A program made the translations under genes and the position numbers. From UHGV virus genome UHGV-0072281: 64,000 nucleotides of DNA; one strand, given 5' to 3'. This DNA comes from a virus. Below the pieces are notes generated by a model. That model ran no database searches. It was not told where the DNA came from and worked only from the letters and a program-made list of their open reading frames with translations. Every line of letters starts with the position of its first letter. Positions within the stretch are counted from its first letter, which is position 1. Shown in pieces: positions 100 to 41,718 of the stretch.

Positions 100-237
100 A
101 ATCTCACCCTTATTAAAATTAAGAAAAAATATTTTTTCAGGTTAGCGCCTACTGCCAACCGTCATATCTATATTTTACGAAATGTCTAAAATAACATTCT
201 TATGCAATCCACCCCTACCACTTACGAGGTAAAAACG

Positions 238-9652: not shown

Positions 9653-12600
9653 TTAAGATGTAAACATAAGATTGAACTGGAGTTTGTCGATATCGCGAGT
9701 TTCTGCTGGATTCACGCCGTCGTACGCGGTCGCTACGTAAACCGTTAGCGTACCGTCAGCGTACGAGGATATTACCGGTGGGTTAGTTCCGGTCTGACCA
9801 TCTCGCACAATGAGTGCAGGCTCGCTGGGAAGATTATCAAACTGCCCTTTAACCGCTTTGTATACCAAACCGGACTGTGCAGATAACTCCGTGTCTGTGT
9901 ACACACAGAACGGTGTATCGATGTCAGCTTGTTTGATAGTGGTACCGGATTCGACATCAACCAACTGTACTGCTCCAAACTTCGTGCGATAACTTTCATA
10001 TTCGTTCTTCGGAATAACAAAAGTAACGTGAACACGAACTTCTTCAGCGGGCTTAAAGCCAGTATGTTCTTTTTCCAAATACTGGTTGGCTGATAGTGTC
10101 ACTTTTTGTTCGGCCATCGAACCACCTGCCTGATTTATTCCGTACCGGGCTTCAACAATACCGGTTGGTGCAGCAAGTCGCAATTTCAGAGTCCGATTCG
10201 CCGTTCCTGGATTACCTGGCACTTGAACGCGCAAACTCAATGCTAAGTAAGCATACGTTCCGGTAGTCGGTTTCGTATACGCACCTATCCATTTCATGTT
10301 CGCAGACGCTGCCTGCGTGTTCTCAGAAGCAATGGCTGTCGTAATGTTAGCAGCTACCGCTTTCTGCCAGAATTGGTCGGCGCAGTTCTCATACGCTACT
10401 CTGGCCACGCTCTTATAACCCGAATACGTTTCCTGAATTGGTAACTTAGGACGCGTCGTGATGCCAGACAATGAACCCCATTTTTGACCGTCAACATACC
10501 CTTCGCCCTTCGACGCAGCCGCCGTAGGTGCTTTAACGGGCTTGTTAACCAGGGTTAATAGAGGACCCGTCTTTCTGTCAAACGCTGCTGCTACATCGTG
10601 TTGGTCGATAATTGCTGCGTGGTCTTCCAGCTCTTTCACACGACCCAAGCGTTTTACTTTGTCGATACTGATATCAGTAATACGGCTGGAATCGGTGGTT
10701 ACTGTCCCGACGAACAGTCTCGTTGAAGTATCGGCTAACTGCTCCAAACCGATGCGGTATTGTGCGGTAGAATCCGACACCTCAGCGTGCACGTAGAACG
10801 TCTGGTTAGCGTGATTGGACGGGAACTCGCTGCTTAAATCCACAGACCACGTTGGGAGTGTGTAGCTGCTGCTACCGAAGTCTAATTTGACTTCTTCTGT
10901 CAAATACAGAATCCAACCTTCCGCTGTCTCCACACCAGCAATAATAACCGCCTGACCACCGGTTGAGAACGTCGTGTCGTTAACGAACTCTGCGGCTGTA
11001 TACGCGTTACCTGAACAGAAAACACGGTCAGCTTTAGAGAAAATCAACGCCATCTTGTCCCAATTACCGGCACCCATATAGCATCCAGATTCTGGGTTAT
11101 GCGCAGGAGCCATCTGACGTAACTGCGACTTACCAGGAACGCGAGACCAACCTGAACCTGGGTCGTAGGTATACTTCGCGGCGTAACCTAGTGCGTTTAA
11201 GTCCCCGATATTTCGGATAGTTAACGTATAAGGTAGCCAGATACCGAAGTTAGTTCCATCCGCAGAAGCGAAAATAGGCTGTCCGACGCGACGGGTCTTA
11301 TTACCAGCCTCCTCTCTTAACGACTGATAACTTAAACCGTAGTCTTTATCCAGGAACCAATCCACCAACTTAAAGTTAGCGGAGTTGAACCGTAAGTAAC
11401 CATTCTCTTTAGATGGACTCACCATGAAGTAATAGATGTCAAGAATTCGACGACCGTTACTTAAGGTTTTCATGCACGAAACTTGCAACAAGTCAAATTC
11501 GCACACGGTGTTGATACCCAACATCCAAAGAGCAAACAATGCATTACCGGTTTGATGGGCAGCACTAATACGTTCGTTCGCGTATCCGTTCGCTTGGCCA
11601 GAAGGTGCACCGTCAACGATCATCCGAATCATTTTCTGTCGATCGGCTTCTTCTAGCGTTAAGCGTTCGGAAGACAACGCGAAGTTACCGTAGATGTTAC
11701 GATACGGGAACGTTTCTGCTTTGGTCAAATACCAACCGTTTAACTGTCCGTGACGCTCCTCAGGAGTCATGCACGCAGCCATACAGCTAAGCTGCTCATA
11801 TAGCGTTGGATCGACTTCACGACGGTTGTTGTTCGGACCGTATCCGCTATAACCCGGAACATCGTAAGGTTTGTTCGGATCAACTTCTACTTCGATGGTG
11901 TAACGGTTACGTGGGTTAGACATCCACACTTTGTTCGAACCACCAATCCCAACAGGATGGGAAAGACCAATGGTATAAATAGAACCACGACCTTTATCCC
12001 AGGTAAACGTTCCTTCGCCTGAGGTATTGTTTGGGTTATCGTAACGCAGATAATCGAAAAATTCTTTGCCTTGTGTTCCTTTAATAGAAACGTTAGGCAT
12101 TTGGTCCGCGTCGTTAATCTGCCAGCAGGAAAGCATCATTCCTGTTCCATTAGGCTTAGCGTACGTTGCAAAACAACGATTGTTTGCTTGACCACCGCCC
12201 CACTTACGGCTGGTTTCTACAGTTGAACCATCCGCGAAAGAGAGTGTAGTAGCATCAGCCTTGATGGGAAAGCGTTCGCGGCCTTCTAACGTAACCTTGC
12301 CCGTCGACGTATCGATTGTAAAACTTGTTGCCCACTGACGAAAGTTAATTTGTGAGCTGTCAGCCGCTGCAAACCACACAGTAGGCATATGGTTCACACG
12401 AATCACGCCGTCGCGCACTGCACAAGCATGGTTACATTCTGGACCGTGAACAAAGTTGCAACCAATTGTCCATTTAGCCCGTGCTTCCGGCGTCAAATAC
12501 GTAAAGAACTGACCCGTTTGTGACTCTTCGGTTTTCTGGCCAATGCGTAGGCAGAGGTTATCTCCGAATTGTCCCATCTCCCCGTTTAGTGTTACGCGTT

Positions 12601-14836
12601 CAAACTCCAGCGTGGTGCTAGTAGACAAATCGTCCTTACGTAGACGCCAAGCTGCTACTGCGTAAGCAGAGTTATTTACCGTAGAGCGGAGAAGATAAAC
12701 GTAATCCTCAACCAACACAACATCATCGGCTTCTGGCCACGGATTCCAGGTTTGTTCCACAGTACCGCTGGGGTTGCCGTTACGGTACACGGGCATCGTA
12801 ACGCGACATACCACCGTGTGTTTAGTGTGATCCATCGAACCATTAAACAACACCAAATAACGGTTATTATCAGAACCCAGACAAATAATCGCTTCCTGAC
12901 CACCGATCAATATAGCTTTCAGGGTCACTCCAGGATATTTACTCATCCCGGCAGGGTGATATTTCACTGAGGTCTGCTGCGGATTTACAAACGCGTTTGA
13001 CGTGTTAATGTCAGCATAGCCGTAATAAATGGCTTCTGTACCCGGTACGCCGTTAGAACCGTTACGGAGCGAATAAACCTTACCCTGCTGATACCCAACA
13101 ACCCCTTTTTGATAAGACTGGTTTTTGGTATAACCCGAATAGTTACCTAGCGCTGGGATAGGTAAGAAGTTCTTGTTACCGAACTTCGCACCACCTACCG
13201 TCCACGCCGGTAAGATGGTATTCAGTTTATCAGAGACTTTCTTAATCTCTTTTGCGAACAGCCACCCTTGACGCGACGTGACAGCTTTATCGTTAGTAGT
13301 GTCAATCGCATCCCAGAGCTGCAAGATACCGTCAACCGATGCACTACCAATTGGAATGTTATCCAAGTCAGCAGTGGTGTGTGTATGCGTCTTCAAACTC
13401 TTGTTTTTCAACACGTTCGTTAACGCTTTCGTCACCGGCTTAGCACTTGGCGTGGTGTTATCCATCTTATCGGTACCGAAATCGGTTTTCGTTAAGGTTA
13501 ACACCATACTGTCGCCTACCTTAACAAACCCTTTACCGTTAACGGTATAGTCATCGTCAACGTACAGGTCCAAGCGGTCTTTTAATTCGGTTACGGCTTT
13601 CTGGGAGATAGCAGTACCTAACGCCGCAGACGTGGAGATATTCGTAATCGAGAACAACCCATAAACTGATTCGGTCGCTGTGGGAATATTCGCGTTTAAC
13701 GTAACCGGGTTAGTCTGTTTTGCGGTACCGTACGGTTTTACAGTGTCTGACGCTTTGAAATACGCGTTTGCTTCGAGCAACGTTACTGACGTCAGGTACA
13801 TGTTCACCATTTCTGGCGTAACCAGATACACGGAGTTATAAACCGGCGCTAATACATCCTGTTCTGACCCCGAGTGAACCCAAAGCGTATTCAGACCCGC
13901 ACTGAATTCAACCGCTAAACCTGATTCGTTGTTGTCCTGGTCTGCTTTAATCACCAACGGTTGTGGCGAGGTAATTAACCACTTATCACCGCGAATACTG
14001 ATGATGTGGCCACCTGACGTTTTAAACGTTAATTCAATACCGTTAGTAGTGCCCCATCGACCGTAAACAGTACCGAGGGCTTCACCCATTAACTGGTCAA
14101 CGTCTGATTGCTCAATACCCGCTGAACCCATCAGCGTAGCCAACTCGTCAATCGTCAACCCAAACGCTTTTGTAGCGTCAACAGCGCGGCCTAATACCGG
14201 GAGAGCAGCAATGTCGTCAGTGGTATAATGATGAGCGTTAGGATTCCGGTGGTGTTGGTATAACTCTTCGTCGAAAACCTTTTTACCGTTCTCGTAAATC
14301 AGGTTAGTAACTTCACTAAACGCAGCATCTAACTCTGTAGAACGCTTAATGATTTTCTTACGAATGTCTTCTAACGCCTTAACAACCTCATCTCTCAGAA
14401 TAGCTTCTTCTAAGTTAGCAGGCGGGTCGATTGGTTGAATAACCGGCGCATACGCCATTAGTTCAGACCAGTCCACGTTACGTGGGTCTTTCAGGTCAGT
14501 ACGAACTAAGAACTTCCCGATTTCAGATTGCGGTACACGATATTGACGTGCTACCCCTAAAATCTCATATTCGATTTCTGTTGCAGTAAGCAACATAAAC
14601 CCGCCGTAAATCTGATCTTGTTCAGCTTCTGCGAGTTCTTTAAAGTAATAGCCTAAATAGTAGTCCAACCCCTCAATCAGAGTACGACGTCCGTTAGGCG
14701 CGGTATCGTCGGCTACTGTGAGTTTTAATCCGATACGATAAAAAGGTCCTTCAGGTGGAATGACCACGTTAAATCGGTTAGGGTACGTTGCTGTGCTTAG
14801 CGTACCGTTAAACTGCGCCGCGTCTTCTCTCGGCAT
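9653..14836 (-). CDS. large tail fibre / tailspike-like structural protein
   Basis: 1727 aa uninterrupted ORF; N-terminal PEGPFY...GLDYYL motif; Gly/Ser/Thr/Asn-rich. Confidence 0.6.
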   Translation of the reverse strand: MPREDAAQFNGTLSTATYPNRFNVVIPPEGPFYRIGLKLTVADDTAPNGRRTLIEGLDYYLGYYFKELAEAEQDQIYGGFMLLTATEIEYEILGVARQYRVPQSEIGKFLVRTDLKDPRNVDWSELMAYAPVIQPIDPPANLEEAILRDEVVKALEDIRKKIIKRSTELDAAFSEVTNLIYENGKKVFDEELYQHHRNPNAHHYTTDDIAALPVLGRAVDATKAFGLTIDELATLMGSAGIEQSDVDQLMGEALGTVYGRWGTTNGIELTFKTSGGHIISIRGDKWLITSPQPLVIKADQDNNESGLAVEFSAGLNTLWVHSGSEQDVLAPVYNSVYLVTPEMVNMYLTSVTLLEANAYFKASDTVKPYGTAKQTNPVTLNANIPTATESVYGLFSITNISTSAALGTAISQKAVTELKDRLDLYVDDDYTVNGKGFVKVGDSMVLTLTKTDFGTDKMDNTTPSAKPVTKALTNVLKNKSLKTHTHTTADLDNIPIGSASVDGILQLWDAIDTTNDKAVTSRQGWLFAKEIKKVSDKLNTILPAWTVGGAKFGNKNFLPIPALGNYSGYTKNQSYQKGVVGYQQGKVYSLRNGSNGVPGTEAIYYGYADINTSNAFVNPQQTSVKYHPAGMSKYPGVTLKAILIGGQEAIICLGSDNNRYLVLFNGSMDHTKHTVVCRVTMPVYRNGNPSGTVEQTWNPWPEADDVVLVEDYVYLLRSTVNNSAYAVAAWRLRKDDLSTSTTLEFERVTLNGEMGQFGDNLCLRIGQKTEESQTGQFFTYLTPEARAKWTIGCNFVHGPECNHACAVRDGVIRVNHMPTVWFAAADSSQINFRQWATSFTIDTSTGKVTLEGRERFPIKADATTLSFADGSTVETSRKWGGGQANNRCFATYAKPNGTGMMLSCWQINDADQMPNVSIKGTQGKEFFDYLRYDNPNNTSGEGTFTWDKGRGSIYTIGLSHPVGIGGSNKVWMSNPRNRYTIEVEVDPNKPYDVPGYSGYGPNNNRREVDPTLYEQLSCMAACMTPEERHGQLNGWYLTKAETFPYRNIYGNFALSSERLTLEEADRQKMIRMIVDGAPSGQANGYANERISAAHQTGNALFALWMLGINTVCEFDLLQVSCMKTLSNGRRILDIYYFMVSPSKENGYLRFNSANFKLVDWFLDKDYGLSYQSLREEAGNKTRRVGQPIFASADGTNFGIWLPYTLTIRNIGDLNALGYAAKYTYDPGSGWSRVPGKSQLRQMAPAHNPESGCYMGAGNWDKMALIFSKADRVFCSGNAYTAAEFVNDTTFSTGGQAVIIAGVETAEGWILYLTEEVKLDFGSSSYTLPTWSVDLSSEFPSNHANQTFYVHAEVSDSTAQYRIGLEQLADTSTRLFVGTVTTDSSRITDISIDKVKRLGRVKELEDHAAIIDQHDVAAAFDRKTGPLLTLVNKPVKAPTAAASKGEGYVDGQKWGSLSGITTRPKLPIQETYSGYKSVARVAYENCADQFWQKAVAANITTAIASENTQAASANMKWIGAYTKPTTGTYAYLALSLRVQVPGNPGTANRTLKLRLAAPTGIVEARYGINQAGGSMAEQKVTLSANQYLEKEHTGFKPAEEVRVHVTFVIPKNEYESYRTKFGAVQLVDVESGTTIKQADIDTPFCVYTDTELSAQSGLVYKAVKGQFDNLPSEPALIVRDGQTGTNPPVISSYADGTLTVYVATAYDGVNPAETRDIDKLQFNLMFTS

Positions 14837-14857
14837 CGTAAAGACTCCTACTTTTTA

Positions 14858-14894
14858 AATAAAATGGATACCCCTCCCCATTACAGGGAGGGGT
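14858..14894 (-). terminator. hairpin between the 1394-aa and 1727-aa fibre genes
   Basis: Minus strand: cccctccc-tgtaat-ggggaggg followed at ~8 nt by ttttattt. Confidence 0.45.
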
Positions 14895-14931
14895 TACCTA
14901 CGGACACACAACTGCCCGCAGGCAGCCTGTC

Positions 14932-17900
14932 CTAAGTACGATCCCCTAACTGCTTCCCGTTAAGTTCTCGTTTCAGTACAGAAAGTATCCATTTCCACGC
15001 TTTACTCGTGATATGGTACGGATTGCGTTTCTCCATTAAGAACTGCTTTTCACCGCTACGCAGTTCAAAGCTCTGCGCATTAAGGTAGTCCTGACGATAG
15101 ATTTTCTCATCAAAAACTTCCAATGAACAGGTAAAGTTAAGTTCGTACCCTTCAGGATTATTACCCGGCGGGTCTAAGACAATATAGATGTCCTGGCCTA
15201 CACGTAAATCCGTTGGAGTGATGGTAATCGCTTTACCCACATCGGCGTTAGTCGACAGAGCAAACTCCGCACTGTCCGTAGACGCTAAGAATGGGTCTTT
15301 CCCTGCGTCGCCAATAATCACTTTACCTGGCCAGTTACTTTTTATCGTTCCCGTCACTTTTGCAATTCGATATTGCTGTTTATCAACACCTTGTGCAAAA
15401 CGGAGAATGAGTTTGTGACGATAACGACTTGCAGCAACCTTAGTCGTACTCCACACATTGTTCCAGGAAGTGTGCAGTTCATTGTTCTTCGCCATCAACG
15501 CACCACGAGACAGTTTACGGTCAAAGAACTGCGCAGGTAACTGCCCATCGTGAGAAACCGCAACACTTCCCTGACCAGTTGGCAAGGCAATGCTCTCCGT
15601 GGCACGGTATTTTTGACTAATCTCATAAGTCGCAGGGTCAATCACAGACTGACTATAATCAGCGTCTTTGTTATCAGCCAAATACCCAACGGATGAATCC
15701 AGATACGACTCAAACAACGAACGTAAGTAATGATACTTATCAATGTCGATATTGTTCGTAACCGGATCAATCAGTGCGTGGCTAATCGTTACTCGGCATT
15801 TCGCGCTCAGTTCTTTAAACGATAATCCTATTCCGTCACCGGTGAAATAATCCACTAAGTCGAACGGGAATTGAATTTCCAACTGACGTTGTTTAACTGT
15901 CGTCGTCCCAAACTGCGAGAACGACAACGCTAAACGTAACACACGCGTACTTACGTTATAACGGTAACGAATCATCCCACGAGGTGCATGGTTTGCAGAG
16001 ATTTTATCTCGGGCGGCGCCCCAGCCAATCAAATCGAGAATCGCAGCATTCGTTTCTTCACCGTTGAACAACACATCCTTAAACGTTGCATTCACCGCTG
16101 TTTCCCCAGACTCTTCCATTACCAACGGAATGTCAGTAACGGCAGAATCTGAACGGGAACCAATCCCCAGCTTACACGCTTTGGCAGTTAGGTCAATGCG
16201 CAGATAGCGACGTTTAACGCTACTCCCTTGCGTTGACGAGCATAGAACCAAATCCGGCGCAGCAGCAAGGGCTTGCGTCCCACCAACATCGTCAACATCG
16301 AATGCAAACGAGCCTTCGAAAGTCGGTGCGTTGTTTTCTTTCGGGTTAAACGGTGTAAACCAACAATACGGCGTAGCACCTTCAGGTATCACAACGTATT
16401 GAAGACTGGATTTCACGTTTTGGTTGTGTGCGTAAGTATAAAGACCGCGACTGACAAGATGGAAAACATCACCTGTACCGGCTGTTAACGCTTTCCTAAA
16501 GATACACGCTCTCGGTTCGGCAATAGCACGGTTTAATAACGGCAAACGTGGGTTATCCGTTAGCGTCCAGTCCACAGAACTGAGTCCGTGCGCTTTACGA
16601 GTGTCGATGTGTTCACTAACCTCGGCACTTTTCCCGAAATCGAACGTGGTTTCGAACCCAACTGTTTTATTCGCGTAATTCTCACCAGCAACAATATCAA
16701 CGTAACCGATATAACCACGTTCAGGATCAACTGCGATGCTCTGAATAGGTTCAGCACGCGAATATAGAGAGCCTGTGAGCATGTTAACGTACAGATAGTG
16801 ACGAATCCCTACGTGGGTTGTAACAAACTCCTGGAGAAGCTCTACGCGCGTTTCAGGGCCACTGAAGTAAACAGGGTAATCACCGTCGTAAACTTCAAAT
16901 TGCACAGCTGCTGATTTTGCAGTGTCACTGCATTCTGCTTTAACAGCGATTGTGTAATTTTCAACATCTAACGACGTTGTGTAGTTCATTAACAACGGAG
17001 ATTCACCGGTAGCGGCCACAACACCATTTACATAAATGGTTATCCTTCCACCGCCAGCGGCGTAAACAAACAGCCTATTCTGATAAGCTTTGACCCGTAT
17101 TTTAGCCAACACTGATACAACGGACTGTTCACCCATCTGTGTAGCGCTTTTACCTACCGGAACTGACTGAAACCCCATTGTTGGAGGATCAACAATTCCA
17201 TCCCAACTAATCCCAGTACCTCTACTAACTTTCCCCGTAGGCCAAGTCAGCTCAAGCTGGTTGTTCGGTGAGAACCAGTTAAACATCGGGGTGGTTTGTA
17301 AGTCAATCGCACCAGTAACGACACCGTCGGCCTTTCCTCCATTCAGCAAATAGAAGTATTTCAAATCCTGAACGGAGATTGTCGTACCCTGGCTATTAAA
17401 ACGCCAGTCTGCGCCTTTTACAGCAGCGAAATCAGTTACTGTTCCTTCTTTCGCGTTTGCTATCGCAGCGGCCACCACATCTAAACGTGCTGAAAGCTCT
17501 TTTAAGATGTTCGGTACCACTGCTCGGTTTTCAACTAAACCGTTCTGGTTAGTTGCGTAACGGCCAATACCGTAAATAGACTGCGAGGCTTTATAAATGC
17601 CTAACTCTGACCAGCCGTGATGGTGGCCGACATCTGCTAAACCGCTAACCGATGTATTCAATGCGGTAGACAACGGTTTGTCAAGGTCTGCGGTGTTGTC
17701 CGCTTGCCCTAATCCCAGATCGGCTTTCGTGATTGTCCTGGAACCGTCGTCCATCGCTTTACCGTTAATCATGGTCGTTTTAGTCACGTACCCTGATAAG
17801 TCGGTTGAATACGGCGTTAATGACGCAGGGGTTGCAGCAACCCCAACCGTTTCTGTGCCTTTACCGGTTTTAAGTTTAACGACACCTTTTTCAGTGGTTG

Positions 17901-19116
17901 ACGCTTTCGTCGGGTCGATAGCCCCCACGATAGGATCGGCTCGAGAACCTTTACCAGTGAAACTGATCCCATTACGGCCTTCGATATACACTTTGGAGTC
18001 ATCAGGGTCGCTACCGCCACCAGAACCCGCATCAGGGTCTTGTTGGTATTCCATAAGTGCGGTGGTGGTCAGTAACGGGTTACCGTTCAGGGTGAGTTTG
18101 TTCATCCCTAAAACATCGCCCGTTGACTCGATGCGTAACATGTTTTTACCCGCACGCCAGTTAATGTAACGTCCCGCGCTAGTGCCTTCCAAATGACCTA
18201 CCGCCAATACCACAGAACCGTTGGATTTTAACGTAAAGCCGTCATTCGCAAAAATGATTTCTGACTCACCGTTTTTCGAACGGAATTGTGCGCGGTTTCC
18301 TGACACCGTACAGTTAAACACACCCCGTACTTCCGAAGAAATCCAGTGGGAGATATACGTGTCAATAACCGACTGTGGTAAACGAAACGCTTTCAGCTCA
18401 TCCGTCAACGCTTTCAACTTTAACCCGTACGCCATAAAGGTGTCAGGGGTTTTCAGGTTAACGGGATGTGCATTAATTTGTGCACTTGTGGTTTCGTGTG
18501 GGTTCGTCGCGGCAATATGTGCTGGGTAGTTAAACGCTTCGATTTCTTTACCCAACGCGGTCACTAACGCTTTAACTTCAGCTAATTTATCTTTAATTAG
18601 CTGGTTAGCGTCATCGGTTTTCAGCTCGATATCGTGAATCGCCGACGCTAAGTATTTTTTGTTCAGCAAATCCGCCCAGGACGTTGCCGCAGGCGTAGCT
18701 GGGTATAGCGACGGTCTACCGTCTAACAACAACCAGTCTGCACTGACTGGGTTATTCAAATATTTCACCAACTCGTCGAGCATCTCAACGAACGGGTCGT
18801 AGAACGTACCGCCGAGCATTTGTCCTTCAAAGGTTACGATGCCTTTGATGGATGGGTTGATAAGGTGTACCCCACAATACACGTTGGCTGCTACCGAGTC
18901 ATCCAGTTCCGTCAGCTGATATTGTAGTTCGTAGTCCACCCCACGACTCAGTGGGGTGGTTGAACCCGGTTGTCTGACGACTAAGTCTTCAAAGAACGGG
19001 CGATGGTCTAAAATCACCACCCGGTCGTTGTTGTTTTCTGACCCGATGATACGCTCCTCTAAGAAGTGATTCTCGGTTTTCGTCCCCCGAGGATCGTAAG
19101 GATACGCTTTCATCAA
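14932..19116 (-). CDS. large tail fibre / tailspike-like structural protein
   Basis: 1394 aa ORF; N-terminal HRPFF...GVDYEL motif. Confidence 0.6.
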   Translation of the reverse strand: MMKAYPYDPRGTKTENHFLEERIIGSENNNDRVVILDHRPFFEDLVVRQPGSTTPLSRGVDYELQYQLTELDDSVAANVYCGVHLINPSIKGIVTFEGQMLGGTFYDPFVEMLDELVKYLNNPVSADWLLLDGRPSLYPATPAATSWADLLNKKYLASAIHDIELKTDDANQLIKDKLAEVKALVTALGKEIEAFNYPAHIAATNPHETTSAQINAHPVNLKTPDTFMAYGLKLKALTDELKAFRLPQSVIDTYISHWISSEVRGVFNCTVSGNRAQFRSKNGESEIIFANDGFTLKSNGSVVLAVGHLEGTSAGRYINWRAGKNMLRIESTGDVLGMNKLTLNGNPLLTTTALMEYQQDPDAGSGGGSDPDDSKVYIEGRNGISFTGKGSRADPIVGAIDPTKASTTEKGVVKLKTGKGTETVGVAATPASLTPYSTDLSGYVTKTTMINGKAMDDGSRTITKADLGLGQADNTADLDKPLSTALNTSVSGLADVGHHHGWSELGIYKASQSIYGIGRYATNQNGLVENRAVVPNILKELSARLDVVAAAIANAKEGTVTDFAAVKGADWRFNSQGTTISVQDLKYFYLLNGGKADGVVTGAIDLQTTPMFNWFSPNNQLELTWPTGKVSRGTGISWDGIVDPPTMGFQSVPVGKSATQMGEQSVVSVLAKIRVKAYQNRLFVYAAGGGRITIYVNGVVAATGESPLLMNYTTSLDVENYTIAVKAECSDTAKSAAVQFEVYDGDYPVYFSGPETRVELLQEFVTTHVGIRHYLYVNMLTGSLYSRAEPIQSIAVDPERGYIGYVDIVAGENYANKTVGFETTFDFGKSAEVSEHIDTRKAHGLSSVDWTLTDNPRLPLLNRAIAEPRACIFRKALTAGTGDVFHLVSRGLYTYAHNQNVKSSLQYVVIPEGATPYCWFTPFNPKENNAPTFEGSFAFDVDDVGGTQALAAAPDLVLCSSTQGSSVKRRYLRIDLTAKACKLGIGSRSDSAVTDIPLVMEESGETAVNATFKDVLFNGEETNAAILDLIGWGAARDKISANHAPRGMIRYRYNVSTRVLRLALSFSQFGTTTVKQRQLEIQFPFDLVDYFTGDGIGLSFKELSAKCRVTISHALIDPVTNNIDIDKYHYLRSLFESYLDSSVGYLADNKDADYSQSVIDPATYEISQKYRATESIALPTGQGSVAVSHDGQLPAQFFDRKLSRGALMAKNNELHTSWNNVWSTTKVAASRYRHKLILRFAQGVDKQQYRIAKVTGTIKSNWPGKVIIGDAGKDPFLASTDSAEFALSTNADVGKAITITPTDLRVGQDIYIVLDPPGNNPEGYELNFTCSLEVFDEKIYRQDYLNAQSFELRSGEKQFLMEKRNPYHITSKAWKWILSVLKRELNGKQLGDRT

Positions 19117-19126
19117 AAAATTCTCC

Positions 19127-22100
19127 TTAATCGCGAATGATTACCGCCTGCACTAAATTGTTGGTGTCGATAAACGACATTACGCGCTCCTTGTTAAGAT
19201 AAGGAGGTATCGGTAACGCAGCGTAATCCGCCAGGTTGTTATTAAACTCGGTTGCCACTAGCGCATTAAGCGTTTCAGGGTCTGAGCTTGTCCCGGCCAA
19301 TTCCATAACACGTACACGATTTAACGAGGAATAGTTGCTGATATAATCCAACAGCGTACCGTAGAGTTTATTCCCGGTTATGCTGTCCGCCGTAGAGCGG
19401 ATATTGGCACGCACTTCGTCCTCATAAAGTCCCCCTAATCCGTAGTAAATAGGGGTATACGGATCGTTAACGATAGGCGCGAGGTTGAACCCGGTTAAAC
19501 GGTCGGTCAGCGAGATTTTCTGCGTAGTACCACCTACCGCCGTACAGCTTACGTATTTATCTGCGGCAGATAAATACACCACAATAGTGTAAACAGTACC
19601 TGCTAAGGTCAGCGTTGCGTTAAACGTTAATTCGTTATTCGCATCACGCGTATGGCTAAATGACACATCGGGTTGTAACGTACTCCACGGTGCAGGTGTA
19701 ACACGTTTCGTTGGCGTGAAACCTAACACCACAGATTTCCCGTTACCGAAGTTTAAACCAAACCCGGCGTAACAATATTCACCATTACTGTCAGTTAAAC
19801 GATAGCCGCGAGTGATAAGTAACGACAACCGCATAAACTCGCCATCGGTGTTTTTCCAACAACCTAAAATGGTTTCTAACACCGTGCCGGTTTTTGCGTT
19901 GCTTTCGGTTTCCCAACTGACTCGCATCCCCGCATTGCTAAATAGGGGGAACAGGTTGTGGATAAATCCATGAACGTTATCACTTACCCCTTTCGCGTCA
20001 AACATCCACTTCGCCGTAAGCTGATCGTATTTCACACCGTCGAGCGCTTTATAACCGTCTCCAACCACATAACGCCAGTCTGCTTCACCACGCACAACCG
20101 CTTGGAGTCCAGAAGCCCAGCAGGGCGCACCTACTGTTAAATTGCTTAACCCCAACACCGCGCGCGAGGCATAACGTTGAATGTGTGCGTTATCGTTAGC
20201 GACGTGGTCTTTCAGCTCACGGAAATCGCCTAACCGCGTCACGTTACGCAACTCCACTACGTCCACTTCGGAAAGATCATTAACAACGAGCCTTCCCACA
20301 CGCGTCATGGTATCCGTCTCAGCTTGATTATAGCTGTCGTGAATAATGTACTTCGCTTTGTTATCGACAATGTCAACAAAAATCCCTGCGTAAACTTCCT
20401 TATTCAGATTCGGGAAACGTTCGGTGACGTTAACCGACATCAACGGTACGTCGTACGTTTCACCACCAATGAAATACGTGGAAGCAGGAAGTGTCACCAG
20501 GATATTGTCTTTAACCGTAACGTCAATTAAGTCGTTACCAGACTTACCAAAACGAATAATGTCAATGCGAGCGCCTGAGTCAACACCACCGACAGTGTTC
20601 TCCAAATCTTCAATCTGGGAAGTCTGCGCCATCACCACACTACTATCGAGTGCTAAAGTGTCATCATCCACATCCAGACCGAATTTAATCAGACCCCGTT
20701 TCGTGGTGTCTGCGTTAGCAACACCGAATACGGAAGACGGGTGTTGGTGAACCTTCGGTGAGTATTTGTCCAGCTCGGTCTGCTGTGCAACAGAAATCGG
20801 TAAGTCAACGTCCGGGGTATTCGCAACGTTACCTAAACCAAAGGTAATTTTGTCGATAGTAACCGAACTGGTAAGCTGCATGTCGTTGATGTACGACTTG
20901 GCGGCAACTAACTTACCGGTAAACTCTGCGTCCAGTTTTTCAATTAACGCGGGTGTCGCTGCAAGGTTTTCAGCCGTACCGAATTCGTCCGTTAACTGCC
21001 AGCAGGCTAAGGTAGTAACGTCATTGGCAACCGGAAGGATAAACGTTACGACAAAGGGCGATGCTTTAATCCCGCTGCCAGTAAGTTCTACGGTAGACGT
21101 AGACGCACCGTAGAACAGACCTGTACCGCCTGCGGTATTACCCGGCAAATACGGCCCGACTGTAGTGGGGTCTAAGAGCTTCTTACCACGCCACAGTAAT
21201 CCACGGTCATCAGGATATAGCACAAGCTGGTTATCGCCCGCCTGTAACGTTACCGGGTTGTTACCCACGTTAACGTCAGTAGAACCTTGACCGATGAACT
21301 TAATGGATTTCGGATCAACGACAAACTGGGCACCTAAACGTGTCTCGTCAACAACATCAGGTGCTTTCTTAATGGTAACCGTGTTACCTTTGTTTTGCGA
21401 ACTAATGGTGACAGCATCAGCAACGTTGTTAATCCACGTTTTAAAATGATATTGATTTTCCAACGCTTCTAGCGCAGAATCCATGTTATCAAAATTAATT
21501 CTGGCACTGTAAGTTTTACCGTTTACCGTAACGACAGCATCGAACACGTTCCCCGTGCGCTTCAACTGGAAACGTAATGAGAAATCGCTGTTAGGTATTG
21601 CCGGATCAGGAGCTTGAGAAATATACCTTACCTGCGGAACTGTACCAACAGTATTAAGGCTTAGCGAAACTTCAATAGAGATAGTATCGCCCCAGATTCC
21701 GGCTTTTATCTCGACAAACTTGCCAGCGATTGTGCCCGGGTTCTCGTAAAACCGCATAATCGCGGAACCGACCGCCTCATTACCCGACGCAGTTTTTATA
21801 CCAGTGACAATAAAGTCAATATCTTGCAGGTTAGCGGGTACCGCATTAAAAGAAGCACTAAATCCATTCTTCGTTCCTGTGTAACGAAGCGCGCCGTGAT
21901 ACCTGTGACCACTACTAACATAGTTTTCGCTAAAATAAGGGTTCACGTATTTAGACATCGAAACCGGATCAACTTCTGTCGTGAACGAAGTAAAACCGGG
22001 CAGCGTTCCAATGGTTCCGTCGGCCGTTTTCGTAGTTGACGTGCGCAGTAGTTTCTTTTGCGCAATCAATGTTTCTTGCGTTGGATACTTAGCATTAACA

Positions 22101-23452
22101 TAATCTGTTAACTGCGGCTTCGTTTTTCCGTAAGCTAACGCTGTATCCGTCGCAATACCATTCAACTCTAACGCACGGATCGCCCCCCACGTGTCGCTGT
22201 GCGGGTTGTCCTTACGTGTAACGTGTTCGTGTGCGGGTGCGTTACGATACAACTGCTCAACTAACTGATGGTACTTAACGATTAACTGATAAACGTCATT
22301 ACTTACGTCAGCTTCTGGCGAACCAGGTAACGCAAGGAATTGAGCGTAATCGTTTTCAGCCGCCCACCAGTTTAAGTTAACGTTGGTTTTGTATTTCAGC
22401 CACTTCGCAACGTCTGTTTTGCTGTAACCTGCTGAGAATTCGTCTGGCGGTGTGTCAACGTTAAACGTATAGTCCATGGACTGTTTGTTAGTCGTCACCT
22501 CGATAACGTATACACCGTTACCCGGTTGACGGACAACGCTAAACGTTAACTCGCCTTTTAATTCATCGTCGGTCAAACCGTTGATTAACGTATAATCGTA
22601 ATCGGTTGAACCACTGCCTAACGCAACCGTCAGTCGTAGGCCAATTTTACGTTGTTTTAATTGGAGACGAAGGATACTTGCGCCACCGTTCGCGTAGCAC
22701 AACATCCAATCGATTTGTTCATTCGGGTTAATACTCCCCATATTCGGAAAAATAGCCGGAATACGGTATTTCATCGACAGGGAATATTCATTTAACGTGG
22801 TGGTTTTGTACGTAACGGAGAAACGACGTTTGGCGGTGTTGTAGGTATACCCACCTTTGTTATCGTACGTTGCGTACTGTTCAGACGTGATAACCGTACC
22901 ATTAGCACGATGTTCGATATCTAACGTGTTGCGCGCAATCGGGTCTAACCGATTCACCACGTTGCCTAACGAATCACCTAAGCCTGCAATGGCCTGCATT
23001 AATTCCAGTTCACCTTTCCAGTTTTCCCAGTCGAACTGAATGTCAACCGGTGGAAAGTAAACATCACCAATAACGGTATCCCATTGACACGCAGACGGGT
23101 ATTTATCTTTATTGAGTTCGCGTTCTGCGGTAATCTGTTCTTGGGTCGCTTCACCACAACCTACGGCGTGGTAATCTACCGTGAAATTCGATTTGTATTT
23201 GTCGTTAACAATCCAAATCATCCCGTGCACGAGATAGGCTGTGCGCAACATACCGGTCTCGTACGGGTGTGTAATAACGTAATCGTCGCCTAAGGTCAGT
23301 ATTTTGCCGCCGCTCTTGACCACCAGGGATGTGGTGAAAAAAGGGGCGTGGGCAGGTACCAACATTCGGTACTTCGTACCAATGACGGCGACCGCTTCAC
23401 CGGTTATTTTATTCCCCGGTTCTTTGAAGTGTGGGTCTAGGACGACAGCCAT
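19127..23452 (-). CDS. large tail fibre / tailspike-like structural protein
   Basis: 1441 aa ORF; N-terminal HAPFF...GDDYVI motif; first gene of the minus-strand block. Confidence 0.6.
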   Translation of the reverse strand: MAVVLDPHFKEPGNKITGEAVAVIGTKYRMLVPAHAPFFTTSLVVKSGGKILTLGDDYVITHPYETGMLRTAYLVHGMIWIVNDKYKSNFTVDYHAVGCGEATQEQITAERELNKDKYPSACQWDTVIGDVYFPPVDIQFDWENWKGELELMQAIAGLGDSLGNVVNRLDPIARNTLDIEHRANGTVITSEQYATYDNKGGYTYNTAKRRFSVTYKTTTLNEYSLSMKYRIPAIFPNMGSINPNEQIDWMLCYANGGASILRLQLKQRKIGLRLTVALGSGSTDYDYTLINGLTDDELKGELTFSVVRQPGNGVYVIEVTTNKQSMDYTFNVDTPPDEFSAGYSKTDVAKWLKYKTNVNLNWWAAENDYAQFLALPGSPEADVSNDVYQLIVKYHQLVEQLYRNAPAHEHVTRKDNPHSDTWGAIRALELNGIATDTALAYGKTKPQLTDYVNAKYPTQETLIAQKKLLRTSTTKTADGTIGTLPGFTSFTTEVDPVSMSKYVNPYFSENYVSSGHRYHGALRYTGTKNGFSASFNAVPANLQDIDFIVTGIKTASGNEAVGSAIMRFYENPGTIAGKFVEIKAGIWGDTISIEVSLSLNTVGTVPQVRYISQAPDPAIPNSDFSLRFQLKRTGNVFDAVVTVNGKTYSARINFDNMDSALEALENQYHFKTWINNVADAVTISSQNKGNTVTIKKAPDVVDETRLGAQFVVDPKSIKFIGQGSTDVNVGNNPVTLQAGDNQLVLYPDDRGLLWRGKKLLDPTTVGPYLPGNTAGGTGLFYGASTSTVELTGSGIKASPFVVTFILPVANDVTTLACWQLTDEFGTAENLAATPALIEKLDAEFTGKLVAAKSYINDMQLTSSVTIDKITFGLGNVANTPDVDLPISVAQQTELDKYSPKVHQHPSSVFGVANADTTKRGLIKFGLDVDDDTLALDSSVVMAQTSQIEDLENTVGGVDSGARIDIIRFGKSGNDLIDVTVKDNILVTLPASTYFIGGETYDVPLMSVNVTERFPNLNKEVYAGIFVDIVDNKAKYIIHDSYNQAETDTMTRVGRLVVNDLSEVDVVELRNVTRLGDFRELKDHVANDNAHIQRYASRAVLGLSNLTVGAPCWASGLQAVVRGEADWRYVVGDGYKALDGVKYDQLTAKWMFDAKGVSDNVHGFIHNLFPLFSNAGMRVSWETESNAKTGTVLETILGCWKNTDGEFMRLSLLITRGYRLTDSNGEYCYAGFGLNFGNGKSVVLGFTPTKRVTPAPWSTLQPDVSFSHTRDANNELTFNATLTLAGTVYTIVVYLSAADKYVSCTAVGGTTQKISLTDRLTGFNLAPIVNDPYTPIYYGLGGLYEDEVRANIRSTADSITGNKLYGTLLDYISNYSSLNRVRVMELAGTSSDPETLNALVATEFNNNLADYAALPIPPYLNKERVMSFIDTNNLVQAVIIRD

Positions 23453-23519
23453 TATCTACTCCTATAGTCCGTGGGCGTCGAGTTCATACTATGACTTGAA
23501 TCTATTGAGGAAAAGAGCT

Positions 23520-24782
23520 GTGACTACTGCTTATCAAGTACGGCCTGACAGCGCTTTTGGCTTCTCTCGAGAGACCCGTACCTGGGGAGCCATCGACGTC
23601 ACGCAACCCTTAGAAACCTTGTGTTCTGATTACCATATTTTCGAAGTCGGTCTGAGTGCGCTTGGTAAAGACTATACGTTAATTAGCCAATATCACCTCG
23701 CTGACTTACAAAACCGTACCGATACTTTACAAGACTGGCTGAATGAAAAAGCCGGTATCGTTATCTCTGAGTTGAATGACGGTTTACCGACGTTAGAGTT
23801 TGATTGGGCACACTACCAATCGATTAATGCCGATGTTCCGGTAGAAACCTACCTGTGTCCTCCCGGTTATCACTACAGTCAAGATTTCAGTATAGACGAT
23901 GCTGACGACGTTGTGATAGTGTGTGAAGATAAATGGAAAGACAAATACCGTAACGGGGTGTTGTACAACATCAACGGACAGTGGGTACCGCATCAATCCG
24001 ATACTGTTGGTGTACGTTTACCAGGTGCGGGTAAGATAGTACGTCGTGCAGGGACACCGGATATCGGGTGCATGGTCTTTAGTAAATTGGGGAATGTTAA
24101 AACGTACCCCATTGCTAACTTGACCTTAAACAAGCTCGACACCACCCGTGACTATTATTCCACGTTAATGATTTCTTTACCGGAATCTATTACGGGTAAA
24201 ACCGTGGGGTTTGTTATCGGGGGACTGATACACTGGTTGCCTGTTACTGGGTACTTCTCCGACAAAGCCATTATGGTGTCGCTACCGAACTTTGACGTTG
24301 CGCGTACTGTGTTAGAAACGCGTCGTTATTACGACTGGGATAGCATAGGCGTTGGCGATTTGTCATCACCGACCAGTGTGCAGCGTATCCGTAACCCAGA
24401 AACGTTAAAGGCGCTTTTAACCCACGAGTCGTCGTTTATCTTTACGGTGGATAATCCGTACCTGGAAGAAGAAGTTGTGGGGGTTTCTCACAACGCTATC
24501 TGGGGACGTTTATACCTTAAAGATCCTAATGACCCTGACGGTGAGAAACAACTGGGGTATCTGTTAAACCGCTTCGGTAAAACTGTTGCTTATTGGCCGA
24601 CGTGGGAAGAAGGGGAATGGGTATTTAACACCACGGAATTCGACAGTCAAAACTACGTGTTCCGTGAGGCCCGTTGGTATAACCAGAATAAAATTAACGA
24701 TGCACAGGCAATCGTAGGGCCTTTCGGTCCCTGGGAAAAAGTCTATTTGGAAATGCATCGTTTCCGTGCAAGAAAAAAATAA
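23520..24782 (+). CDS. hypothetical protein (possibly structural)
   Basis: ORF 23304..24782; start moved to in-frame GTG 23520 after GAGGAAAAG SD because the longer form overlaps the divergent gene; start uncertain. Confidence 0.5.
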   Translation: MTTAYQVRPDSAFGFSRETRTWGAIDVTQPLETLCSDYHIFEVGLSALGKDYTLISQYHLADLQNRTDTLQDWLNEKAGIVISELNDGLPTLEFDWAHYQSINADVPVETYLCPPGYHYSQDFSIDDADDVVIVCEDKWKDKYRNGVLYNINGQWVPHQSDTVGVRLPGAGKIVRRAGTPDIGCMVFSKLGNVKTYPIANLTLNKLDTTRDYYSTLMISLPESITGKTVGFVIGGLIHWLPVTGYFSDKAIMVSLPNFDVARTVLETRRYYDWDSIGVGDLSSPTSVQRIRNPETLKALLTHESSFIFTVDNPYLEEEVVGVSHNAIWGRLYLKDPNDPDGEKQLGYLLNRFGKTVAYWPTWEEGEWVFNTTEFDSQNYVFREARWYNQNKINDAQAIVGPFGPWEKVYLEMHRFRARKK

Positions 24783-24787
24783 GTAAC

Positions 24788-24829
24788 CTCCTACCCTCTA
24801 AGAGGGTAGGAGTAGCACGTTTTTTTTTT
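24788..24829. terminator. bidirectional intrinsic terminator
   Basis: ctcctaccctc-taag-agggtaggag, T9 run downstream, A-run upstream. Confidence 0.55.
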
Positions 24830-24832: not shown

Positions 24833-25042
24833 TTAGTCTTTTTTGTAGACAATCGCGTTACCGTGCAGTTTGTTGTTACCGGAAATACCGATAACTTTAA
24901 ACGCTTCACCGCCGATCTTTTCAGCTTCGACAGCCAGCTTAGCAGTAACGTCGTCTACGGTATCACCGAAAGCGCTTACGTTACCAATTTTCTTGAACTC
25001 TTCAGGAATGTGTTCAGCAGAAGAGAATTCTTTAATAGCCAT
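24833..25042 (-). CDS. DUF1471 (BhsA/YhcN-family) domain protein
   Basis: 69 aa; C-terminal KVIGISGNNKLHGNAIVYKK matches the family signature (compare BhsA ...ITSVTGPNTLHGTAVIYK, from memory); GGAGAG SD; no signal peptide. Confidence 0.6.
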   Translation of the reverse strand: MAIKEFSSAEHIPEEFKKIGNVSAFGDTVDDVTAKLAVEAEKIGGEAFKVIGISGNNKLHGNAIVYKKD

Positions 25043-25241
25043 AGCTACTCTCCAGTTAAAGAAAGGAAGGACTGTATCGTGTTACAACCAAAGCATATGA
25101 TAGCTCCTCCCCGAAGGGAGGAGAGAGTGCGCGAAAAAAGTGGCCTGCTTAACTAAACGATGAGGTTTAAGAAAAGTGTTGATAAGAAGCTTACCAACGT
25201 CAGGTCACAATATATAATACCAACGTAAGAAAAAGGGGAAA

Positions 25242-26207
25242 TCAGCGTGGGCCTGAAGTTGGGCCATGGACGCCGTCATGGATGTGTACGCTGAAGGTAA
25301 TACCGGAAATAACCGCATCCTTAACCGTAAAGATACCCACGCCTTCGCCCGTACCACCGTATTTGAAGTTCTTAGCAACTTCCAAATTACCGGTGAACAT
25401 CGCTTCTTTACCTTCTTGCTTAAAGTTCGGCGTTTTATACGTTGTTGAACCAGAAGCTTCAGTTAGCCAGGTTTCTGTTTTAAAGGTGACCGATTTCGAC
25501 GCTTCGGTATTCCGAACTTCGCATTTCTCATTAATCGTTTTCGTTTCCAGGTTAATCGAACGTTTTGCGTAAATGAATGCATCTTCTTTATTGATGTTCA
25601 CTTTTGAAAGCATCGCGTTCTCAAAACCTAAATCGTCTTCCACCGAGTTAATGTAATACTTATTCCCTTTATGGTCAACGCACTGCCACGACCCGTTAGC
25701 GTTATCGAATTGGAATAACCACGCCGCTTTCTCCCCATTCACCATACTTGTTCTTAGGGTAACGTGTTTGTCAATCGTTGAGACGTTTAACACATACGCG
25801 TTCGACAAGTCATCCGCCATCTGGTTTTCAGGGTCAGCCGACCACGCGTAAACCGCATCTTCTAATCGCTTAACGTTAGCGAAATTCAGATCAATCCAAA
25901 AATAAATATCCGTTTTCCCCAAACGTAACAAGATAACGTAATCTTCTCGTTTAACGTCAGGGGAATTAATTCGGTTGGAGTTAAACTTCCACCACTTTGC
26001 CGTTATCGTGTTACCCGTCTTAATGGTTAGGTTATCTGTTGCACCAGATGTTTCATGCGTCTTTTCAGTTGCTGAAGAAACAGATTGTACCACGGTAGGG
26101 TTAGCAAAGTTAGTTTCAATTGGTATCACTTTTACCCGATCTGTACCACGGGGTTTGTCTTCCGCGACGATACCAATTGAGAAAAAATCAACGCTGGATT
26201 TCTCCAT
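25242..26207 (-). CDS. hypothetical protein (possibly virion-associated)
   Basis: 321 aa ORF; AAGGAA SD; His-rich C-terminus HIHDGVHGPTSGP. Confidence 0.55.
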   Translation of the reverse strand: MEKSSVDFFSIGIVAEDKPRGTDRVKVIPIETNFANPTVVQSVSSATEKTHETSGATDNLTIKTGNTITAKWWKFNSNRINSPDVKREDYVILLRLGKTDIYFWIDLNFANVKRLEDAVYAWSADPENQMADDLSNAYVLNVSTIDKHVTLRTSMVNGEKAAWLFQFDNANGSWQCVDHKGNKYYINSVEDDLGFENAMLSKVNINKEDAFIYAKRSINLETKTINEKCEVRNTEASKSVTFKTETWLTEASGSTTYKTPNFKQEGKEAMFTGNLEVAKNFKYGGTGEGVGIFTVKDAVISGITFSVHIHDGVHGPTSGPR

Positions 26208-38326: not shown

Positions 38327-38851
38327 ATGCTTACCTCACTCGGTAAGACCGTTATGCTAACGATACTTCCAGAATCGGTTATTGACAACGACCTGTTTAA
38401 CGCCCCTGAGCGCTTCAAGGTCGTTACGATAAATTGTGTAGGGGCAATGGGTCGGGGTATCGCTTTAGCGTGCAGAGAACGCTATCCTGGGCTTTATCAG
38501 GACTACCGAGAACGTTGCTTCGCTAACGAGATACGAATAGGGAATGTGTACGTTTATCCCGAGGAAAACTGCATTCTCTTACCAACTAAAACACATTGGA
38601 AACTGAAATCCCAGGTTTCTTATGTTATCGCGGGTATCACCGCGTTGGCAGATGCCGCAGAAAACTTAGAGGGTGGGGTGGCTTTACCGCCGTTAGGGAT
38701 GGCCAACGGTTGGTTGACAAAAGCTGAATGTCAACAAATCTTTTTGTTTATCGAAAAGAAACTCGTACCGAGGAGACAACAATACTGTTTCTATTTACCT
38801 GATCCGCTTTACCAAGAAGCAAAACCTTTAATTCCAAACCTTTTTAAATAG
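38327..38851 (+). CDS. macrodomain protein (putative ADP-ribose-binding/hydrolase, TARG1/DarG-like)
   Basis: 174 aa; INCVGAMGRGIALACRERYPGLY and later ALPPLGMANGWL resemble macrodomain signatures as remembered; start may be ATG 38354. Confidence 0.55.
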   Translation: MLTSLGKTVMLTILPESVIDNDLFNAPERFKVVTINCVGAMGRGIALACRERYPGLYQDYRERCFANEIRIGNVYVYPEENCILLPTKTHWKLKSQVSYVIAGITALADAAENLEGGVALPPLGMANGWLTKAECQQIFLFIEKKLVPRRQQYCFYLPDPLYQEAKPLIPNLFK

Positions 38852-38866: not shown

Positions 38867-38951
38867 CACACAACAAAGGAGTACCAGCTGTCCGCGCCGT
38901 GATTTCGTTCTACGGAATACGGAAATGTATAAATCCAACTGGAGAACTAGT

Positions 38952-39638
38952 ATGTTTCGTATCTTCTTTCTTTTACTGGTAACACTTTTCGCGTTTAACG
39001 CATACGCATCCAAATCCGCGCCCAGTACCAAACACCATCGTGAATTCGAAATGATTCAAGACCGTTTCGAACGGGTAAAACCGTTGATTGTGGAAATCTC
39101 TCGAAAGCAGGGTGTTGATCCTAATTTGATGACCACGCTAATCTATCGAGAGTCACGGTTTAATCCGAAAGCGTATAATCGAACGTCTAAAGCGCACAGT
39201 CTGGTTCAGATGCTGCCGAGCACAAAGCGTAATTTGCTAAAACTCTACGGTGCCGAAATCGGACTTAGCCGCAATGCAGATTTGTACAATCCTCGTAATG
39301 CGGTGCTATTGGCTTCCGTCTACGTTAAACATTTAGAAAAGGGGTTAACTAAACGACTCAAACGCAAGCCCACTATTGCAGAAATAGCATTGGCTTATCA
39401 CTGGGGTGAAAGCGGTGCACACGCCAGGATTAAAAGCAAGTCTCGGGCAGCACAACGAGAAATGGCGAGCTTTATGAAAGATGCAACGTTCTACAGTGCA
39501 AAAATCAACAAGCCTGTAGCATCTCGTCAGCTTGCGTTTGCGAAGAAACCAGAACGCCAGATTCAGTTAGCAGAAGTTAACCGAATTTGGGATACGATAA
39601 ACACCAGTTTTCCATTTAAACAAGGAGTCACCCTTTGA
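38952..39638 (+). CDS. lytic transglycosylase (SLT-like domain) with signal peptide
   Basis: ORF 38925..39638; start moved to ATG 38952 after GGAGAA; MFRIFFLLLVTLFAFNAYAS signal-like; YRESRFNPKAYNRTSKAHSLVQMLPST resembles SLT catalytic region. Confidence 0.6.
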   Translation: MFRIFFLLLVTLFAFNAYASKSAPSTKHHREFEMIQDRFERVKPLIVEISRKQGVDPNLMTTLIYRESRFNPKAYNRTSKAHSLVQMLPSTKRNLLKLYGAEIGLSRNADLYNPRNAVLLASVYVKHLEKGLTKRLKRKPTIAEIALAYHWGESGAHARIKSKSRAAQREMASFMKDATFYSAKINKPVASRQLAFAKKPERQIQLAEVNRIWDTINTSFPFKQGVTL

Positions 39639-41684: not shown

Positions 41685-41718
41685 CCCTACTCCCGGAGGA
41701 GTAGGGTTAATTCTTTTT
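41685..41718 (+). terminator. intrinsic terminator (CCCTACTCC stem family)
   Basis: ccctactcc-cgga-ggagtaggg then ttaattcttttt. Confidence 0.7.

Follow-up and report, generated by a model that had tools for sequence, protein, structure and literature searches.

A DUF1471 domain protein without a signal peptide in an SPN3US-like jumbo phage lineage, with codon usage indicating very high expression

Proteins of the DUF1471 family are among the most strongly stress-induced small proteins in E. coli and Salmonella, and to our knowledge no molecular mechanism has been established for any of them. The bacterial single-domain members (BhsA/YcfR, YbiJ, YahO, McbA, YhcN, and SrfN) share an RcsF-like fold, carry a Sec signal that is cleaved off, act in the periplasm and are encoded by stress-regulated chromosomal paralogues. 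The family is restricted to the Enterobacteriaceae/Enterobacterales and is normally periplasmic (PMC4092069, PMC11705850). A phage counterpart has been deposited as gp172 of the jumbo phage SPN3US (SPN3US_0172, YP_009153466.1; RefSeq name "DUF1471 domain-containing protein"), with orthologues at the same locus in phiEaH2 (gp094), Asesino (gp192), Machina (gp183), and CR5 (CR5_163). Here, we analyzed the gene at positions 24833..25042 (minus strand) of the UHGV virus genome UHGV-0072281, of which a stretch of 64,000 nucleotides is referred to as the window. The 69-aa product (MAIKEFSSAEHIPEEFKKIGNVSAFGDTVDDVTAKLAVEAEKIGGEAFKVIGISGNNKLHGNAIVYKKD) was shown to be an orthologue of SPN3US gp172 and phiEaH2 gp094. 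It resembles the orthologues of this group in size (67–73 aa), in the absence of a signal peptide and in an extreme codon bias, at 43–78% amino acid identity. The phage family to which it belongs as a new orthologue, PHROG 8068, had been catalogued before, and the domain annotation is already present in databases. The literature search returned no paper on DUF1471 or BhsA in jumbo phages or virions, and none that treats the loss of the signal peptide.

The original prediction assigned the product to DUF1471 on the basis of a family signature at the C-terminus and described it as lacking a signal peptide, and both claims held up. The protein ends in GISGNNKLHGNAIVYKKD, exactly as quoted, and a hidden Markov model (HMM) search matched residues 17–67 to nearly the whole of PF07338 (YdgH/BhsA/McbA-like, i.e., DUF1471; profile positions 2–55 of 55) with 40.3 bits against a gathering cutoff of 27 (E = 3.4e-10). 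The PHROG 8068 profile was matched over the full length (residues 1–69 against positions 1–70 of 70, E = 1.1e-31), and the sequence search reached the solved YahO structures 2MA4 and 2NOC at E ~1e-3. Motifs common to the phage and bacterial proteins are KIG-VS, KA---GA, F/Y-K/R-I/V, and GNN-LHG-A--YK. An AlphaFold2 model built from 37 sequences, with three phage-locus rows left out, predicted a β-β-α-β-β topology (mean predicted local distance difference test, pLDDT, 86.5). The top Foldseek matches of this model in the PDB were DUF1471 domains, namely SrfN (2JNA, 2MA8) and YdgH domains I and III (2M2J, 4EVU), with template modeling (TM) scores of 0.66–0.74, followed by RcsF (2Y1B), an archaeal Se-binding protein and YbjQ/DUF74 proteins. 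The same set of structural neighbors was given for the DUF1471 family by Eletsky et al. (2014; PMC4092069). A compact alpha+beta DUF1471 fold as in SrfN, YahO, and the YdgH domains, and similar to that of RcsF, is therefore predicted for the phage protein, which is a member of PF07338 by sequence and fold but does not share the signal peptide and periplasmic location usual for the family. No second DUF1471 copy was found in the window.

An N-terminal extension was excluded by the reading frame itself. An in-frame TAA stop (25082..25084, minus strand) closes the frame 13 codons 5′ of the ATG at 25042, which is the first start after this stop; none of the 13 codons in between is ATG, GTG, or TTG, so the true start does not lie upstream and the protein cannot carry an N-terminal signal peptide. 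A Shine-Dalgarno sequence, GGAGAG, is located 5 nt before the ATG (25048..25053, minus strand), and a GGAG-type block is kept at this place in eight aligned phages. The N-terminus (MAIKEFSSAEHIPEEF) is acidic and hydrophilic, and the maximum Kyte-Doolittle mean over 10 residues within the first 35 residues was 0.40, compared to at least 1.9 in 26 bacterial homologues (those with an annotated start at the signal peptide). The phage methionine aligns to the signal-peptidase site of the bacterial DUF1471 proteins, and the phage protein thus equals the mature domain. All 12 phage copies examined, each of 67–73 aa, showed a hydrophilic N-terminus and no signal peptide. When a BhsA-type bacterial protein was used as the query, the same jumbo phages and no other true phage were found, and the query aligned to the phage records only from residue 26–31 on, past its own signal peptide. 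The isoelectric points (pI) of the phage copies were all acidic (4.5–6.3), compared to 4.8–9.9 for the bacterial copies; this uniform acidity fits a cytoplasmic protein. The phage protein of the window also differs from the bacterial ones in scoring below every NCBIfam equivalog cutoff and in being encoded by a lytic jumbo phage.

Homologues of the gene were found in 60 of 50,697 phage records searched by tblastn (identities 38–78%). All 60 were jumbo phages of ~200–250 kb infecting Erwinia, Salmonella, Escherichia, Cronobacter, or Proteus, which is consistent with the enterobacterial host suggested by the original prediction. The same locus was identified in 10 annotated phages of at least five genera (phiEaH2, SPN3US, SPAsTU, Asesino, Machina, Wellington, Phobos, CR5, Derbicus, and pEa_SNUABM_29; the genera include Seoulvirus, Erskinevirus, Machinavirus, Wellingtonvirus, and Derbicusvirus) and in one metagenome contig. 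The conserved order is a gp173-like baseplate gene, a spacer of 200–310 nt, the DUF1471 gene and a convergent gp171-like tail gene. All SPN3US-like jumbo phages of enterobacterial hosts have the gene. An exhaustive HMM search over 1.84 billion representative proteins gave 40 matches, four of which were signal-less full-length proteins of the phage type; about 30 of the others were proteins of 71–123 aa with a typical signal peptide, and a few were truncated or misannotated. A word-indexed homology search gave only four close relatives, and the bacterial members were reached by the exhaustive profile search. The closest protein sequences (99 and 91% amino acid identity) were from metagenome contigs, while the highest amino acid identity in the phage record collection was 78% and the highest nucleotide identity to a deposited phage ~74%. 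The window represents an undescribed lineage related to SPN3US-like phages. In Wellington (L008), a second, tandem DUF1471 gene without a signal peptide was detected directly 3′ of the first one (2287..2847). Its 186-aa product matches PF07338 with 29.7 bits and has an acidic C-terminal tail of ~120 residues that looks to be of low complexity and is probably disordered. This tandem copy indicates that the DUF1471 family has been duplicated and diversified inside phages.

Host-gene capture, as proposed in the original prediction, was supported only as an ancient and probably single event. A recent capture is ruled out by the synteny across at least five genera, by the phage-like G+C content (0.42 for the gene, equal to its surroundings, and 0.447 for the window) and by the low identity to bacterial proteins, the highest value to a bacterial representative being ~42%. 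The ratio of non-synonymous to synonymous substitution rates (dN/dS) relative to related phages was 0.05–0.19, showing strong purifying selection, at dS values of 0.7–1.4, at which synonymous sites are near saturation. The phage copies grouped together in a neighbor-joining tree, with a bootstrap value of only 0.20; since 69 alignment columns are too few to prove monophyly, the single origin rests mainly on the synteny and the shared loss of the signal.

Codon usage pointed to very high expression of the gene in this phage. The frequency of optimal codons (Fop), computed with E. coli-type optimal codons, was 0.76, the highest among 63 open reading frames (ORFs) of the window (mean 0.53, standard deviation 0.08). 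For SPN3US gp172, the Fop of 0.85 ranked first of 49 genes in the region and was comparable to the values for the major capsid protein gp75 (0.84) and the abundant head proteins gp53 (0.81) and gp54 (0.80). The gene had values of 0.69–0.82 in 10 more relatives (nine annotated phages and the metagenome contig), compared to 0.49–0.59 for the flanking baseplate and gp171-like genes in the same relatives and 0.65 for the tandem paralogue in Wellington. The codon bias appears to be selected, because it is kept across relatives in spite of saturated synonymous divergence. In this group of phages, the use of E. coli-type optimal codons follows expression. Among 31 SPN3US virion proteins, Fop was correlated with spectral abundance as given in the literature (r = 0.69, log scale; p = 2e-5). 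From this relation an abundance of ~10 spectra/kDa was predicted for gp172, compared to 0.86 observed in virions. A remark in Reilly et al. (2020) describes SPN3US gp172 as of "unusually high abundance in cell" (PMC7411985). Two paralogues of the abundant SPN3US head protein gp160 (202..768 and 1394..1924, plus strand; 49 and 35% identity) were also among the ORFs with the highest codon bias in the window (Fop 0.70 and 0.63).

Published data on the presence of gp172 in SPN3US virions are inconsistent, the protein being present after one CsCl step and absent after such a step combined with buoyant-density gradients. Among the virion proteins identified by mass spectrometry in Thomas et al. (2016) are gp171 and gp173, whereas gp172 is missing; that study gives homologues of gp172 for phiEaH2 and CR5 only, with nothing entered in the phiKZ columns. 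In Ali et al. (2017), gp172 was detected in wild-type virions purified by a CsCl step, with six spectra and 81% coverage (PMC5694885). Table S2 of Reilly et al. (2020; PMC7411985) gives 13 peptide-spectrum matches (PSM) for gp172 in the crudest sample, for which differential centrifugation was the sole purification. Samples taken through a single CsCl step had 6 and 3 PSM, and tailless heads had 2. In the same table, doubly purified tailed virions showed 0 PSM for gp172, compared to 36 for gp171 and 17 for gp173, and 0 PSM are also given for gp172 in three doubly purified tail-containing preparations. This pattern agrees with the codon bias and suggests that the detection of gp172 in virions reflects carry-over or weak association. 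The claim that the protein stays cytoplasmic is likely right for most of it, with the reservation that SPN3US gp172 has been seen in some virion preparations.

The gene appeared to be organized as a small transcription unit of its own. The upstream neighbor encodes a baseplate assembly protein homologous to SPN3US gp173 (25242..26207, minus strand; PHROG 3216, E = 1e-113), with its stop at 25242. Between this gene and the DUF1471 gene, alignment and folding revealed a stem-loop, CTCCTCCC-TTCG-GGGAGGAG (25104..25123, minus strand), which we interpret as the terminator of the baseplate transcript because relatives carry a T-run and compensatory stem changes here; in the window, the T-run plus ~30 nt after it are deleted. 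On the other side, an 11-bp stem-loop with an A-run and a T10 run (24788..24812) serves as a terminator in both directions, shared by the DUF1471 gene (minus strand) and the convergent gp171-like gene (plus strand). Morons, a concept from lambdoid phages, are host-derived accessory genes with their own promoter and terminator located between phage structural genes. The present gene resembles them in being a small gene of host origin between structural genes, bracketed by stem-loops and with a conserved motif like a start site upstream, but its carrier is a jumbo phage that is strictly lytic, it was fixed long ago and is not sporadic, and it would be expressed lytically at capsid level and not from a prophage.

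The candidate transcription start is a TATG(C) motif (25094..25097, minus strand) that is invariant in the eight aligned phages; it is also visible by eye in four further unaligned upstream regions (as TATGT in Wellington). A start at this motif would give a leader of ~52 nt. The late promoter of phiKZ is TATG, with G as +1 (PMC4666361, PMC7598289), and by analogy the conserved TATG suggests a non-early promoter of the phiKZ late type, used by a phage RNA polymerase. A sigma-70 scan gave no match on the strand of the gene, and an 8-mer enrichment analysis returned only terminator-stem words.

Farther upstream, conserved non-coding blocks, TTACG-N9-TATATT-G-TGAC ... CATCGTTTAG ... GCCACTTTTTTCGCGCA (25128..25229, minus strand), are common to nine phages of four to five genera, but the CR5/Phobos/Derbicus group does not have them. 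Neither the window nor 100 kb of SPN3US contains them at any other locus, and a generic early promoter was rejected for this reason. RNAalifold found no consensus structure for the blocks, the fold of the single sequence had a z-score of −1.9, and Rfam contained no family for them, a sub-threshold PyrG-leader match being actually the terminator. They could be a 3′ untranslated region element, a small RNA or a protein-binding site. In most relatives a leader hairpin, AGACATAGGGTCT (AGAC-ATAGG-GTCT), is located ~25 nt before the Shine-Dalgarno sequence, with compensatory changes in SPN3US (GAAC/GTTC) and Derbicus (AGGC/GTCT); it is absent from the window and from the closest metagenome relative. 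Compared to the gp172 orthologues, the upstream region in the window is thus shorter, with the T-run of the upstream terminator, a second TTTACG block and this hairpin missing.

Terminator-like stem-loops were observed in intergenic positions at 24788–24812, 41690–41720, 42295–42330, 55268–55295, and 61617–61650. They share related G+C-rich stems, CCTACCCT/AGGGTAGG and CCCTACTCC/GGAGTAGGG, the words of which are almost exclusively intergenic, and similar stems were present at the orthologous hairpins of Machina and pEa_SNUABM_29. The convergent neighbor, a homologue of SPN3US gp171 (PHROG 3337), occupies 23520..24782 on the plus strand; gp171 is essential and tail-associated in SPN3US (PMC5105663). 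The ORF-finder call for this gene (23304..24782, TTG start, 492 aa) was over-extended and overlaps the end of a 1441-aa gene on the opposite strand; the true start is the GTG at 23520, because homologues are 420 aa long and start with VTTAYQ. Three successive giant genes of 1727, 1394, and 1441 aa (9653..23452, minus strand) lie on the same strand as the DUF1471 gene and were assigned, by position only, to the SPN3US paralogue family C (gp168-170, baseplate or fiber candidates).

The lysis region of the window contains a lytic transglycosylase with an SLT domain (38925..39638, plus strand; PF01464, 52.9 bits). Because of its strongly hydrophobic start (FRIFFLLLVTLFAFNAYA), this lysin is considered to be of the signal-peptide or signal-arrest-release (SAR) type, indicating that the phage uses export signals when the periplasm has to be reached. 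A possible holin or pinholin candidate is the next-but-one ORF (40208..40687), in which hydrophobic segments are present. Just 5′ of the lysin gene, an ORF of 174 aa (38327..38851, plus strand) showed a weak match to the Macro domain PF01661 (20.8 bits against a cutoff of 22).

We propose that an ancestor of the SPN3US/phiEaH2/CR5-like jumbo phages took the DUF1471 domain from an enterobacterial host and that only the mature part of the protein was retained, with loss of the Sec signal. The gene would form a small separate transcription unit inside the tail/baseplate block, made up of the stem-loop, TATG, the leader, the Shine-Dalgarno sequence, the ORF, and the bidirectional terminator. Its product would be translated at a very high level and fold in the cytoplasm; most of it would be non-structural, the traces in SPN3US virions being due to carry-over or weak association. 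Up to lysis at least, its place of action would be the cytoplasm, where it would bind or sequester a partner by mass action and would not serve as a periplasmic stress protein. Binding by mass action is suggested because the protein is only 7.5 kDa in size and has no catalytic signature, and because bacterial DUF1471 domains are non-enzymatic monomers or dimers. The promoter type, the non-structural status in this phage, and the binding mode of action are what we infer, and we give about even chances to a cytoplasmic product that is very abundant, non-structural, and active through stoichiometric binding.

Several observations weigh against this proposal. The gene is embedded in a tail/baseplate module, and no result points to a binding partner or ligand; isolated bacterial DUF1471 domains are mostly monomeric, with no known ligand except the sulfated sugars bound by SrfN (PMC4092069). 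Ali et al. (2017) call gp172 the smallest SPN3US virion protein (PMC5694885), and it is labeled "Tail" in Table S2 of Reilly et al. (2020; PMC7411985). The intergenic regions of the window show no enrichment of the patterns TTAC...TATG and TATGC, so the promoter assignment is based on conservation and the analogy with phiKZ. The optimal codons used for Fop were those of E. coli and were validated only in an indirect way, by the values of the capsid protein and the abundant head proteins, and the abundance and virion data are for SPN3US gp172, which is 43% identical to the present copy, and not for this phage. The phage copies are also unlikely to bind polyanions as SrfN does, since all of them have an acidic pI.

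The strongest competing explanation, though itself unlikely, is that the protein is a genuine but loosely attached part of the virion, such as a baseplate or fiber accessory, which is carried on the tail to the surface or periplasm of the next cell. Assembly in the cytoplasm would need no signal peptide, the gene is located between two genes whose products were confirmed by mass spectrometry as tail or baseplate proteins and is preceded by a late-type TATG motif, the DUF1471 family is otherwise envelope-associated with SrfN binding polysaccharide, and the spectra of Ali et al. (2017) and the "Tail" label mentioned above point in the same direction. However, in Table S2 of Reilly et al. (2020) gp172 was most frequent in the crudest preparation, none of its PSM came from doubly purified tailed virions or from three tail-rich preparations with good detection of gp171 and gp173, it is absent from the virion tables of Thomas et al. 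(2016), and capsid-level codon bias and the abundance in the cell are far above what a minor tail part would need. Proteins of 11.9–14.6 kDa (gp97, gp33, and gp37) were detected in the doubly purified tailed sample according to the same table, but the rows read show nothing as small as the 7-kDa gp172, so a loss related to size is possible. A non-virion yet abundant protein without a signal peptide could also be an assembly helper or chaperone, either for the giant baseplate or fiber proteins (homologues of gp168-170) or for the baseplate, that is discarded from the virion. Its conserved place in the tail/baseplate block, upstream of and on the same strand as the three genes of 1394–1727 aa, would fit this; but gene order is conserved genome-wide in these phages, so that position weighs little, and the gene has its own promoter-like motif and terminators and would not be co-transcribed with any fiber gene. 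Furthermore, no chaperone role is known for the DUF1471 fold, and phiKZ-type relatives with homologous fiber proteins do not have the gene (Thomas et al., 2016, Table S). We regard this function as rather improbable.

Slightly less probable still is a cytoplasmic stockpile that acts only once the envelope is breached at lysis and might bind an envelope component specific to Enterobacterales, for instance to mask receptors on debris, to help disrupt the outer membrane or to act on neighboring cells. A periplasmic or outer-membrane location of the ancestral DUF1471 partners, the family-conserved residues kept in the phage copy, and a copy number high enough for stoichiometric coating of an abundant envelope component are all compatible with this wholly inferential explanation, and in Table S2 of Reilly et al. 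(2020) the top PSM count was from a debris-rich crude fraction. In a second debris-rich fraction of that table there were 0 PSM, however, and the lysis genes are 14 kb away with no link to the DUF1471 gene. Because a signal or SAR segment is present in the lysin itself, there is no need for large holin holes through which cytoplasmic proteins would be released; access to the periplasm through the holin is weakened as a route by the same feature. A recently captured gene of the bhsA/yhcN type, still encoding a periplasmic stress or biofilm protein as its bacterial relatives do, is hardly credible. The best NCBIfam match was indeed the BhsA model, and "multiple stress resistance protein BhsA" is used in several deposited phage genomes, but the BhsA equivalog NF047859 was matched with only 47.4 bits against a cutoff of 90 and over model positions 30–85 only, for which reason the BhsA label on some GenBank records is unjustified. 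No phage copy has a signal peptide, while the function of YdgH needs a periplasmic location (PMC11705850), and the identity to bacterial proteins of ~42% or less, the phage-like G+C content, and the locus fixed in at least five genera are difficult to reconcile with recent capture. A periplasmic BhsA equivalent is refuted by the score below the cutoff, the missing signal, the low identity, and the fixed locus.

Within the proposal of a cytoplasmic binding protein, a more specific and doubtful version is that this envelope-stress domain, stripped of its export signal, is a high-copy sequestering or decoy protein directed against an Enterobacterales-specific host factor in nucleus-forming jumbo phages. 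The targets of such a decoy, at the same low probability, might be a stress, immune or envelope-precursor signal. If this were true, phages would have made a host DUF into a takeover or counter-defence protein of a new class.

Several deposited genomes use the label "multiple stress resistance protein BhsA", which misleads and should not be passed on to further records. The results draw attention to an unstudied abundant protein of SPN3US-like jumbo phages, which are therapy and biocontrol candidates against Salmonella and fire blight. The apparent conversion of a periplasmic host domain into what may be one of the most abundant cytoplasmic proteins of jumbo phages is an under-appreciated puzzle. 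Strong selection on the bare domain, together with its production in the wrong compartment and probably in capsid-like amounts, would offer a clean handle on what DUF1471 binds.

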